A stretch of 64,000 bases of DNA from an uncultured Lachnospiraceae bacterium (GCA_934294885.1 CAKRAK010000005.1:9535-73534); one strand, 5' to 3'. Shown: positions 11,697 through 50,341, numbered from the stretch's first letter. Numbers and translations are program-made. The notes: generated by a model not told the origin, from the letters alone.

Positions 11697-11913
11697 TATA
11701 TAGATAATTTCGAAACGGATACTGTTTCATACTACCTTGATATAATATATCGCAGGCACGCTTGCGCTTCATCCGCACACAGCGGTACTAAACTTGGAAT
11801 ACGCAGGTGCGATTCCTCGTTAAGTACCGGTGTGCTACAAGAGCCTGCTTATATATTATATTAAGGTAGTATGAATTGTGAGTATAGAAAAGCGTTTCGA
11901 AAATATCTATATA
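11697..11913 (+). repeat. long-hairpin dispersed repeat, copy A (core 11745-11856)
   Basis: The 112-nt core is near-identical to 24398-24509 and 50148-50260. The flanks form further inverted repeats: catactaccttgatataat / attatattaaggtagtatg and tatatagataatttcgaaacg / cgtttcgaaaatatctatata. Confidence 0.9.
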
Positions 11914-11951
11914 AAAGAATTGGAAATGTGGTAGCACAGAAAGGAACAGAT

Positions 11952-24315: not shown

Positions 24316-24350
24316 AATAAATTCCTTTCTGTAATGCAAGTAATACCGGT

Positions 24351-24558
24351 AATCGCGAAACGCTTTTTCCTTTATAATTTGTGCAAATTTAATATGGATA
24401 TATCGCAGGCACGCTTGCGCTTCATCCGCACACAGCGGTACTAAACTCGGAATACACTAACGTTTTTCCTCGTTAAGTGCCGGTGTGCTACAAGAGCCTG
24501 CTTATATATCATATTAAATTTTGCACAATGATATAGTTTACTAAGCGTTTCGCAAATT
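24351..24558 (+). repeat. long-hairpin dispersed repeat, copy B (core 24398-24509)
   Basis: Same core as copies A and C. Arms ttgtgcaaatttaatatggatatat / atatatcatattaaattttgcacaa, and basal stem aatcgcgaaacgc / gcgtttcgcaaatt. Confidence 0.9.
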
Positions 24559-24762
24559 CTAAGCAGAATTATGTGATCTAAGTTAATTTTACAATTACCT
24601 GTATAACATAGTATATAAGTGGGGAAAAATCAAGGGATATGAAAAAACTCCGTTTTTGAAATAATAACTGGCATGGTTAAAATAATAAAAACTGGATGTT
24701 TTGACCATGCCAATGTTGGGTTATAATGCAGCGAAAAGAAGGAAAGAGAGGATTATGAAAAA

Positions 24763-34862: not shown

Positions 34863-34891
34863 TTGCACAATTATAAGTCCGGGAGTATAAT
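34863..34891 (+). promoter_or_regulatory. sigma-A promoter of the rib operon (TTGCAC-17-TATAAT)
   Basis: -35 at 34863-34868, 17-nt spacer, perfect -10 at 34886-34891, about 20 nt upstream of the riboswitch. Confidence 0.7.
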
Positions 34892-35081: not shown

Positions 35082-35120
35082 AAAGCTTTGAAGTATGGAT
35101 ATATTTCAAAGCTTTTTTTA
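35082..35120 (+). terminator. riboswitch expression-platform terminator
   Basis: Stem aaagctttgaa / ttcaaagcttt, 12-nt loop, T run. Confidence 0.8.
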
Positions 35121-35372
35121 CGCGAAGCAACGAGCCAAGGTATGTGCTTGCACAATACTTTGGCGACTGCCGCGATAACTTGCGAAAACCGCGAAGCACG
35201 TTTCGCATAGTATAGGCGAAGCAACGAGCCAAGGTACGTGCTTGCACGATACTTTGGCGACTGCCGCGATAACTTGCGAAACCCACAAAGAGCGTTTCGC
35301 ATAGTATACGCGAAGCAACGAGCCAAGGTATGTGCTTGCACAATACTTTGGCGACTGCCGCGATAACTTGAG
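35121..35372 (+). repeat. tandem repeat, 2.7 copies of a 93-94-nt structured unit
   Basis: The GCGAAGCAACGAGCC unit starts at 35123, 35216 and 35310. Each unit contains the hairpins caaggtatgtgc-tt-gcacaatactttg and tgcgaaaac...gtttcgca. Confidence 0.95.
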
Positions 35373-35391
35373 AAAAGACAGGTGTATCAGA

Positions 35392-36561
35392 ATGAATGAT
35401 AAAAAGGATAATCGGGAAAAGTATATGTATCGTGCCATTGAACTGGCACAACTGGGACTTGGAAAAGTCAACCCCAATCCATTAGTTGGAGCCGTTATCG
35501 TAAAGGATGGCAGGATTATCGCAGAGGGATATCATGCCAGATATGGAGAGCTGCATGCAGAACGGAATGCATTTCAGAATTTAAAGCACAAAGAGGATGC
35601 AAAGGGAGCAGAATTATATGTAACATTAGAACCGTGTTGTCATTACGGAAAACAGCCTCCATGTACAGAGGCAATTATTGAACATGGGATTTCCACGGTG
35701 TATGTAGGTTCCAATGACCCTAATTCTTTGGTGGCGGGAAAAGGGATTCAGCAGCTAAGGGATGCAGGGATAAAGGTTGTTACCGAGTTTATGAAGGAAG
35801 AATGTGATGCGCTAAATCCGGTATTTTTCCATTACATTACAACCAAGACCCCCTATGTGGTCATGAAGTATGCCATGACACTGGATGGTAAAATTGCGAC
35901 TCATACCGGACATTCCCGCTGGGTATCCGGAGAAGCCTCCAGAGCAAGAGTGCATGAAACAAGAAATGCATTGTCTGGTATTATGGTTGGTATTGGAACG
36001 GTATTAAATGATAATCCGTTACTGACCTGTCGTATGGAAGGGGGAACGAATCCCACAAGGATTGTATGTGATACCAAATTAAGAATCCCGCTGTCCAGCC
36101 AAATCATAGATACGGCAGATGAGGTGCCAACCATTGTAGCAACAACTGCACCCCATCCCGAATATAAAAGATTCTGGAATGAAGAAAAGGCATTTCTGGA
36201 AAAAAATAATGTTACGGTTTTGGTGGTAAAAGAAAAAAATAACCGGATTGATTTACAGGATCTTATGATAGAGCTTGGAAAATTAAAGATAGACAGTATA
36301 TTAATCGAAGGCGGTTCGGCTTTGAATTATTCAGCACTACAGGCCGGTATCGTGAATCGGATAGAGGCGTATGTTGCACCTAAAATATTCGGAGGGGTGG
36401 GATTTTTCACTCCTGTGGGTGGTGAGGGTGTTGAACTTGCTACAGATGCGTTAAAAGTAAAATTCGTGTCGGCAAAACCCGTTGGAGAGGATATTCTTTT
36501 AACCTATGATGTAGAAAAGAAGATAGAAGAAATTTCAGAAGATAAGAAAGAGGAGGTATGA
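35392..36561 (+). CDS. ribD: bifunctional diaminohydroxyphosphoribosylaminopyrimidine deaminase / 5-amino-6-(5-phosphoribosylamino)uracil reductase
   Basis: Deaminase zinc motifs HAERNA and PCCHYGKQPPC, plus the reductase domain. The ATG at 35392 is the first start after the repeat array; the ATG at 35425 is an alternative. Confidence 0.9.
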   Translation: MNDKKDNREKYMYRAIELAQLGLGKVNPNPLVGAVIVKDGRIIAEGYHARYGELHAERNAFQNLKHKEDAKGAELYVTLEPCCHYGKQPPCTEAIIEHGISTVYVGSNDPNSLVAGKGIQQLRDAGIKVVTEFMKEECDALNPVFFHYITTKTPYVVMKYAMTLDGKIATHTGHSRWVSGEASRARVHETRNALSGIMVGIGTVLNDNPLLTCRMEGGTNPTRIVCDTKLRIPLSSQIIDTADEVPTIVATTAPHPEYKRFWNEEKAFLEKNNVTVLVVKEKNNRIDLQDLMIELGKLKIDSILIEGGSALNYSALQAGIVNRIEAYVAPKIFGGVGFFTPVGGEGVELATDALKVKFVSAKPVGEDILLTYDVEKKIEEISEDKKEEV

Positions 36562-36563
36562 TT

Positions 36564-36866
36564 ATGGTTAAGCATATGATTATTTGGACATTAAAGGAAA
36601 CGTTATCAGAGGAAGAAAAGAAGACGGTAAGGGAAGGCATAAAAGAAGGTCTGGAAGGTCTGACCGGAAAAATTGAGGGCTTGTTGGAAATCAAGGTTCA
36701 TATAGACGGACTTTCTTCCTCCAACACAGATCTTATGCTGGAAAGCAGCTTTGAAAGCTTCGAGGCGTTGAAGGGATATTCCGGTCATCCGGCTCATGTA
36801 GCGGTTGCAAATGAAAAAGTACGTCCGTATACACAAATCCGCAGCTGCTTTGATTATGAAGTGTAG
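36564..36866 (+). CDS. Dabb (stress-responsive dimeric alpha/beta-barrel) domain protein
   Basis: 100 aa. VKHMIIWTLKE...EALKGYSGHPAHVAV is typical of the Dabb family. RBS GAGGAGG lies 7 nt upstream. Confidence 0.75.
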   Translation: MVKHMIIWTLKETLSEEEKKTVREGIKEGLEGLTGKIEGLLEIKVHIDGLSSSNTDLMLESSFESFEALKGYSGHPAHVAVANEKVRPYTQIRSCFDYEV

Positions 36867-50098: not shown

Positions 50099-50308
50099 AA
50101 TTGCAAAACCCATGCAACCTTCCTTTATTTGTGCAAAATTTAATATGATATATCGCAGGCACGCTTGCGCTTCATTCCGCACATAGCGGTACTAAACTTA
50201 GGATGCGCTTACGCTTTCCTTCGTTAAGTACCGATGTGCTACCAGAGCCTGCTTATATATCATATTAAATTTTGCACAATTAATGACAATCCAAAGGGTT
50301 TTGCAATT
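50099..50308 (+). repeat. long-hairpin dispersed repeat, copy C (core 50148-50260)
   Basis: Same core as copies A and B. Arms ttgtgcaaaatttaatatgatatat / atatatcatattaaattttgcacaa (perfect), and basal stem aattgcaaaaccc / gggttttgcaatt. Confidence 0.9.
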
Positions 50309-50341
50309 CCCTGACAGAGCTTAAATCGGAAAGGAGTAAAG

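Follow-up and report, generated by a model that had tools for sequence, protein, structure and literature searches.

Does a tandem array of structured repeats between a riboswitch and its gene belong to the regulatory leader, or did it arrive there from elsewhere? The question was raised by a 64,000-nt stretch of DNA from an uncultured Lachnospiraceae bacterium (GCA_934294885.1, CAKRAK010000005.1:9535-73534; hereafter the window, with positions counted from its first letter), in which 2.7 copies of a repeat unit lie between the terminator of a flavin mononucleotide (FMN) riboswitch and the ribosome-binding site of ribD. The array is probably a dispersed, mobile-type repeat that was inserted after the terminator and amplified in tandem to an extent that varies between strains, and not a device specific to the rib operon. 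The family to which it belongs is an apparently undescribed, widespread repeat that resembles palindrome-associated transposable elements (PATEs) and repetitive extragenic palindromes (REPs).

The tandem array and its alleles

Tandem Repeats Finder placed the array at 35119-35376 of the window (2.7 copies, period 94, 92% matches, score 453), and a second repeat search returned the same three copies with identities of 100, 91 and 79%, in agreement with the initial annotation. Units 1 (35121-35214) and 2 (35215-35308) are full long forms on the plus strand and are 91% identical. Unit 1 has a core hairpin with an outer stem at 35136-35162 and a second hairpin at 35181-35207; in unit 2 the core hairpin is found at 35230-35256 and the second hairpin at about 35275-35301. 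Unit 3 (35309-35375, plus strand) is a short form, the core of which ends with GATAAC at 35367 and is followed by TTGAGAAA. It shows 99% identity to unit 1 across 70 nt and is fused to the native AAGACAGG. On the left side the array is preceded by a TTTA (35117-35120, plus strand), which consists of the end of the terminator T-run plus an A and is presumed to be the insertion target; the junction reads TTTTTTTA followed by CGCG. The hairpins annotated in the unit were present in the sequence, and so was the described replacement of the second-hairpin loop between units 1 and 2. A single unit was predicted to form two hairpins, the first of them long and irregular, with a folding energy of -34.8 kcal/mol (z = -3.1 against shuffles).

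About 35 conspecific loci from independent human-gut metagenome assemblies were collected by exact look-up of RibE and three close variants, and 19 of these span the leader. A metagenome scan with the rib terminator sequence gave no match. The shortest distance from terminator to ribosome-binding site, 75 nt with 0.7 unit, was read across in two assemblies (L332 and L335); L342 fits too but starts inside the terminator. A distance of 100 nt, corresponding to one internally deleted unit plus 0.7 (about one copy), was observed in four assemblies, 169 nt with 1.7 units in five, and 263 nt with 2.7 units in the window and two further assemblies. Two longer alleles, each from one assembly with a gap of Ns, measure at least 363 nt (at least 3.7 units) and at least 457 nt (at least 4.7 units). 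One scaffold (L340, 230 nt, with a gap of Ns) cannot be sized, and about ten further contigs end inside the array. All rib alleles share the left junction, TTTTTTTA to CGCGAAGC, and the right junction, GATAACTTGAGAAA to AGACAGG, so that the right end of unit 3 is common to every conspecific allele, including that of 0.7 copy. An allelic series with identical outer junctions shows the array to be real, with the behaviour of a variable-number tandem repeat. Variation of the unit copy number between strains, which had been anticipated, thus extends from 0.7 to at least 4.7 in the conspecific assemblies. In five of the collected loci (L313, L315-L317 and L319) gene callers ran RibD through the array and arrived at 445 or 468 aa in place of 389 aa, an annotation artefact of the repeat.

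The rib leaders of two sister species (G004 and G007), whose RibD proteins are 87-88% identical at the amino acid level, were found to contain no array; in them the riboswitch and an orthologous terminator are separated from the same AAGACAGGTGTAT...ATG by some 85 nt of unrelated spacer. The unit was absent from the rib leaders of G004, G007, G006 and the others compared. Since the sister species do not have the array, it probably replaced the spacer or entered it after the species split. The assumption that nothing normally intervenes between the riboswitch expression platform and the ribD ribosome-binding site did not hold, as an unrelated spacer, about 70-90 nt long, is found there in relatives. 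The implied role of the unit as a structured module of the rib leader could not be upheld either; the unit is a dispersed repeat beside unrelated genes, and the rib leaders of the two sister species do without it.

The repeat family and its position behind terminators

Solo units elsewhere in the genome had also been suspected, and BLAST together with an iterated nhmmer profile identified 11 further solo loci in the same 2.46-Mb genome (G000), with identities of 71-90%. Two forms occur in G000, a long form of about 95 nt with both hairpins and a short form of about 60 nt, which comprises the core only and ends with GATAAC. At nearly every locus the element starts 0-3 nt past the hairpin and T-run of an intrinsic terminator and has the same orientation, the typical junction being TTTTA followed by CGCGAAGC. 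A terminator was adjacent at 9 of the 12 loci by a strict hairpin and T-run test and at 10 of the 12 by eye; as a control, 5.5% of random TTTA-preceded genome positions passed the strict test. The genes beside these copies are unrelated. At three loci the downstream gene is convergent, and the element is therefore not a leader of the downstream gene.

The rib leader is not the only riboswitch leader of this genome invaded by the repeat family. At L053:216-390 (G000:C10:35765-35940) a ZMP/ZTP riboswitch (RF01750, 56 bits) is followed by a terminator, a short-form core and the ribosome-binding site of a purH-like gene. Another short-form copy, at the locus referred to below as C14 (L047, G000:C14:26493-26561), follows the promoter-proximal leader hairpin and T-run of a lipoprotein gene, with TTGACT-17-TACTAT upstream. 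Exact look-up of the protein encoded upstream of the C14 copy returned no record.

Two parts make up the element, an optional second hairpin module and a conserved core, about 60 nt long, of the form GCGAAGCAACGAGCCAAG-(variable stem with a GCTTGC apex)-TTTGGCGACTGCCGCGA. The core consensus is (TTTA)-TTCCCGCGAGCAACGAGCCAAG-(variable stem, apex GCTTGC)-(A)TTTGGCGACTGCCGCGAGG. A covariance model built on eight long-form copies was run on 44 genomes of the genus and found matches in 14 of them, including an independent tandem pair in G006. One genome per prokaryotic species was then scanned with a strict core pattern; the distribution is taken from about 80 loci listed, the total being at least that. 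Among the matches listed, most are from Lachnospiraceae (Blautia, Dorea, Acetatifactor, Kineothrix, Lacrimispora, Parablautia and [Clostridium] symbiosum), and Alkalibaculum sporogenes is also among them, with arrays of a 92-93-nt period. In the five genomes checked for their number of strict-pattern copies, there were 46 in G063, 26 in Dorea sp. 5-2, 25 in Alkalibaculum, 13 in Lachnospiraceae bacterium M18-1 and 8 in Acetatifactor muris. Tandem arrays are present in at least three lineages and recur independently in G006, Alkalibaculum (x4, x3 and x2) and other Lachnospiraceae; G064 is among the genomes with arrays.

The core hairpin is under selection, as follows from covariation across the family. 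In 66 diverse copies 85.5% of cells were paired and both-side changes occurred in 18 of 25 pairs, values that were reached in none of 500 shuffles. The core stem contains an invariant G.T pair, an adjoining position that is C.A or T-A, and a possible tandem G.A motif. The initial annotation had based its case for covariation on the rib units, between which T35143-A35154 changes to C35237-G35248. This change is present, but the pairing is not strictly kept within the species. The two positions read TA in 15, CG in 11, CA in 6 and TG in 3 of 35 units from the conspecific assemblies, the mismatched combinations being recombinant forms. Local covariation at this pair is thus weak evidence, and the family-wide covariation is strong.

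Two types of 3' module were distinguished. Type B, found in this genome, G006 and Alkalibaculum, has the form GAGAAAC-loop-GTTTCTC, and type A, the commonest in Lachnospiraceae, has the form GGGTCAAATACCCCGC...GCGGGGTATTTGACT. The type-A right module (GTCAAATACCCCGC...GCGGGGTATTTGAC) also occurs solo, well over 100 times, in the G063 genome, which makes the family a mosaic of modules. This module is a palindromic repeat in its own right, and it is joined to the core in the way in which motifs are combined in bacterial interspersed mosaic elements (BIMEs). The covariance models of Rfam 15 gave nothing for the repeat on the array, the 11 other loci and 8 loci of other genomes, at gathering thresholds as well as at permissive ones (E <= 10).

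In two genomes (L393:515-760, that is G060:C23, and L107) a short-form core was observed directly 5' of the same small excisionase-like helix-turn-helix gene (MANNKMNIEGKNY...), and the core may travel with an integrative element. Several copies (L354, L366 and L111) lie directly after the 3' end of a tRNA gene and a T-run; two of them are in viral-classed contigs, perhaps at prophage or host boundaries. Carriage by phages was considered and rejected, as only 3 of 22 pattern matches in viral contigs were true members and two of these three lie just past a tRNA 3' end, maybe in host flanks.

Evidence for mobility and comparison with known elements

The clearest picture of the intact element was obtained from G063, an uncultured Lachnospiraceae genome of 3.2 Mb in which the 46 copies share an identical core. 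The 40 copies inspected are near-identical elements of 157 nt with TTTA directly 5' in 40 of 40 and a 3' end of TTTGACT. Their ends are asymmetric (TTCCCGCG... and ...GGGGTATTTGACT), the flanks are random beyond the TTTA, and neither terminal inverted repeats nor a target-site duplication was observed in these 40 copies. Empty sites were found at two loci. At C14, G014 (L216, G014:C4:148060-148220) reads TTTTATTATA joined directly to CAAATCGGGAGG where G000 has the 60-nt core, and G004 has a decayed remnant of the core. At the second locus, C1b, only a terminator and about 30 nt precede the ribosome-binding site in G024; in other species this locus is occupied by diverged or partial copies, or by a different miniature inverted-repeat transposable element (MITE). 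A TTTA-type sequence, that is a T-run plus A, pre-exists at the empty orthologous sites in G024 and G014. Copies of the family cluster on one strand over long stretches.

At the rib locus, one copy would have entered directly 3' of the TTTA from the T-run of the FMN riboswitch terminator after the split from the sister species, and homologous recombination or replication slippage between units would then have expanded and contracted the array to between 0.7 and at least 4.7 units. As in BIME clusters, which also vary in number between strains of E. coli (PMC3333891), unequal recombination or slippage probably best explains the tandem arrays in several lineages.

Mobile elements of the IS200/IS605 family have no inverted repeats, cause no target duplication and insert 3' of a tetra- or pentanucleotide; their hairpins are subterminal, and the template of the lagging strand is preferred (PMC7290912, PMC3333891). 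In a recent survey, the enrichment of terminator-like sequences was strongest directly upstream of IS200/IS605 elements (bioRxiv 10.1101/2025.07.22.666184). The anatomy of the repeat suggests that the family could have been moved in trans by single-strand 'peel-and-paste' transposition of this (HUH) type. As a specific mechanism this is put forward only tentatively; it would fit the invariant 5' TTTA, the lack of inverted repeats and target duplication, the asymmetric ends with subterminal hairpins and the clustering on one strand. The same features are found in the PATEs that consist only of IS200/IS605 ends, which likewise have imperfect hairpins with conserved mismatches and are frequently positioned just past terminator-like hairpins. 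Hairpins are present at both ends of the repeat; in type A both apices are GCTTGC, and in type B the two hairpins are unrelated to each other. The family differs from PATEs in that its right module is interchangeable between subfamilies, and that neither an autonomous element with the same ends nor a Y1 transposase in G000 or G063 was found. The element therefore behaves in the manner of a PATE, although the autonomous partner that would allow it to be classed as one was not found. An IS91-type (Y2) partner was also considered. Its marker PF04986 was found in G063, G060 and G064 and not in G000 or G006. The IS ends determined in G060 were unrelated, with no core nearby, and neither the family model nor BLAST showed a likeness between the repeat and the ends of the IS91-type elements examined, so this candidate was rejected.

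REPs and BIMEs, too, are short imperfect intergenic palindromes with stem covariation, conserved mismatches and mosaic modules (PMC3333891), and the tandem clusters with a strain-variable number of units are a further likeness. The repeat differs from the system of REP/BIME and REP-associated tyrosine transposase (RAYT, TnpA-REP) by the absence of a GTAG-type 5' tetranucleotide and by units that are direct and not alternating. The copies also sit after terminators, and not as the 3' hairpin of an mRNA. No PF01797 match that could indicate a RAYT gene was present in G000, and no inverted pair of copies flanking a gene, as in a REPtron, was seen in the copy lists. With classical MITEs, with the small Firmicute repeats RUP, BOX and bcr1 and with D1 the family shares that it is gene-less, multi-copy, intergenic, hairpin-forming and strain-variable; it differs from classical MITEs in having no terminal inverted repeats and no target-site duplication. 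The Clostridiales-1 RNA motif (RF01699) is likewise an intergenic hairpin motif of gut Clostridia with unknown function, but its match to the array is at chance level (12.4 bits against a gathering score of 48, E = 6.4), and other family members gave none.

D1 is a foldback MITE of about 205 nt, present in the window at 11705-11915, 24350-24560 and 50100-50310 and in this genome at about 65-70 loci. It has the inverted ends TTGCGAAACGC...GCGTTTCGCAA, and shorter arm-only derivatives are also present. The rib units and the D1 ends share a 9-nt stem, TTGCGAAAC/GTTTCGCA, and it was this stem of 8-9 nt on which the initial annotation had based a possible kinship between the array and the other hairpin repeats of the window. 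The kinship is not supported. A D1 profile hidden Markov model with about 140 matches genome-wide matched neither the array nor any other family copy, and other members, even those in distant Alkalibaculum, carry the stem in the form GAGAAAC/GTTTCTC. Local gene conversion is a possible source of the stem common to rib units and D1. At the C1b locus, where G000 has a 94-nt element, the sister species G007 was seen to have a D1-type copy.

Effect on rib expression and weighing of the explanations

The features around the array are all on the plus strand. A sigma-70-like promoter (TTGCAC-N17-TATAAT region, 34863-34891, 10 of 12 hexamer matches) lies 5' of the FMN riboswitch aptamer (RF00050, 34908-35038, 101.8 bits against a gathering score of 66.2, E = 1.7e-22). 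The terminator of the expression platform (35082-35119) is an AT-rich 15-bp hairpin with a run of seven Ts and a predicted fold of -15.7 kcal/mol, and it is kept in the sister species G004 and G007. The ribD Shine-Dalgarno sequence (AGGTG) and ATG (35380-35394) are native sequence common to the sister species, and ribD itself (35392-36561) encodes a deaminase/reductase of 389 aa, with the Pfam domains dCMP_cyt_deam_1 and RibD_C listed for identical loci.

The array sits in the would-be 5' untranslated region of read-through rib transcripts, as the initial annotation had stated. Every allele has kept its terminator and ribosome-binding site intact. Promoter prediction gave no sigma-70-like site within the array, and when the sequence was inspected by hand for sigma-54 or sigma-D motifs, or for a hybrid promoter to which the terminal TTGACT would contribute, nothing convincing was seen. 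In the alleles of 0.7, 1.0, 1.7 and 2.7 copies, the ribD Shine-Dalgarno sequence was predicted to be unpaired with a probability of 0.24 and the ATG with one of 0.97-0.99; the corresponding predictions for the sister species were 0.39 and 0.86. Judged from these predictions, the array is most likely a neutral or near-neutral passenger of the read-through transcripts.

Several observations weigh against an inserted mobile repeat as the explanation of the array, or against its proposed mode of movement. Y1_Tnp (PF01797) was not found in G000, G063 or G062 among ten genomes searched, and of five genomes searched for the TnpB marker PF07282, G000, G063 and G064 gave no match, the absence of a gene from G063 being weak evidence because this is a metagenome-assembled genome. 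The flanks of all Y1_Tnp genes fetched (G006, G048, G049, G055, G060, G061 and G064) had no similarity to the repeat by an unfiltered covariance model or blastn-short. The left and right hairpins are dissimilar in the type-B subfamily, which is not the case for classical IS608-type ends. Diverged or partial copies lie at the same orthologous terminator in several species, so that some sites may be ancient; the copies there could have been inherited vertically or re-inserted. The G-rich strand holds 9 of the 12 copies in G000 and 32 of the 40 in G063, but gene orientation gives the same bias. Finally, a terminator precedes only 4 of the 40 copies in the young type-A burst of G063, and the terminator adjacency in G000 could reflect the survival of harmless insertions at TTTA and not targeting. 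Terminators do precede about 15 of 17 type-B copies in Alkalibaculum and the type-B copies of the group of G006, G001 and G049. The terminator pattern could reflect subfamily-specific targeting of hairpin and T-tract, survivorship being equally possible.

An assembly artefact, in which a repeat was collapsed or expanded, can practically be dismissed. Public contigs do break inside the array, about ten in number, and three scaffolds have gaps of Ns there, but identical 2.7-copy structures recur in the independent assemblies L320 and L323, and the 0.7, 1.7 and 2.7-copy alleles form a clean series with the same outer junctions. A functional cis-regulatory extension of the rib leader, with repeats that tune mRNA stability, translation or the riboswitch read-out and a copy number that serves as the tuning knob, would fit the exact position of the array between expression platform and ribosome-binding site. 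It would also fit the core of at least 0.7 copy kept in all conspecific assemblies readable across the leader, a copy number as hypervariable as in contingency loci, and the same core in the same position behind the ZTP riboswitch. This explanation is nevertheless very unlikely, given the two sister species' rib leaders without an array, the same element next to unrelated genes and even between convergent ones, an array with no predicted promoter behind a terminator that is intact in all alleles, and a predicted accessibility of the ribosome-binding site that is identical from 0.7 to 2.7 copies.

More general functions have to be considered as well. The core could function as a structured RNA, or as DNA to which a protein binds, and be retained behind terminators for that reason, either for the processing or blocking of read-through or for the binding of nucleoid or topology proteins in the manner of REPs and BIMEs, and the copies would then reflect function more than selfish mobility. 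The strong stem covariation, the conserved internal-loop and base sequences, the invariant G.T pair and the possible tandem G.A motif agree with such a function, as do G.T wobbles on the top strand of the second hairpin in Alkalibaculum, an orientation that is the same as that of the upstream terminator, and diverged copies that persist at the same orthologous terminator in several species. It is distinctly unlikely all the same, for the burst of 46 copies with identical cores took place mostly away from terminators, some copies in other Lachnospiraceae lie right against the start of a divergent gene, orthologous sites are filled in one genome and empty in another, and the ends of single-strand-DNA transposons show the same kind of covariation; furthermore, there is no promoter to express the element on its own and no such Rfam family. 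Group IIC introns are said to insert just after intrinsic terminators in sense orientation, an observation attributed to Robart, Seo and Zimmerly in 2007. The repeat mirrors this behaviour directly past the terminator T-run, and its core hairpin in G000 superficially resembles intron domain V (GAGCC..., 9 + 5 bp, bulge in the 3' strand). Mobilisation via RNA, as a retroelement-like hitch-hiker on the group IIC machinery, is still extremely improbable. The repeat lacks both ribozyme domains (V and VI, RF00029) and a reverse transcriptase, no copy tested had an Rfam group II intron match, a ribozyme would have to be much longer than 60-157 nt, other subfamilies do not preserve the domain-V-like geometry, and the young burst shows no terminator association.

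A further-reaching view of the family is rather unlikely. According to this view, it would be a widespread, undescribed, terminator-homing non-autonomous element of gut Firmicutes, moved by an enzyme unrelated to the known Y1/Y2 HUH transposases or by a host factor that recognises the terminator hairpin and T-tract. Its insertion between riboswitch terminators (FMN, ZTP) and their genes, together with the instability of its copy number, would then be a heritable way to alter riboswitch-controlled expression.

The dispersed mobile-type repeat inserted behind the terminator, which is the preferred explanation, has some practical consequences. Repeats of this kind are abundant in Lachnospiraceae, a dominant gut family, where they break short-read assemblies, and in riboswitch leaders they can be mistaken for regulatory RNA structure. 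The family unites a TTTA target that is strict and not duplicated, a strong association of one subfamily with terminators, right ends that are modular, and tandem amplification that has recurred. As no transposase could be linked to it, it offers a concrete handle on a still hidden mobilisation system. The rib array is in addition a natural allelic series, from 0.7 to at least 4.7 units, for testing the effects of insertions on riboswitch-controlled genes.

Downstream of the array, a gene of 100-102 aa with a Dabb domain (stress-responsive A/B barrel, PF07876) was observed inside the rib operon, between ribD and ribE, at 36558-36866 of the window.

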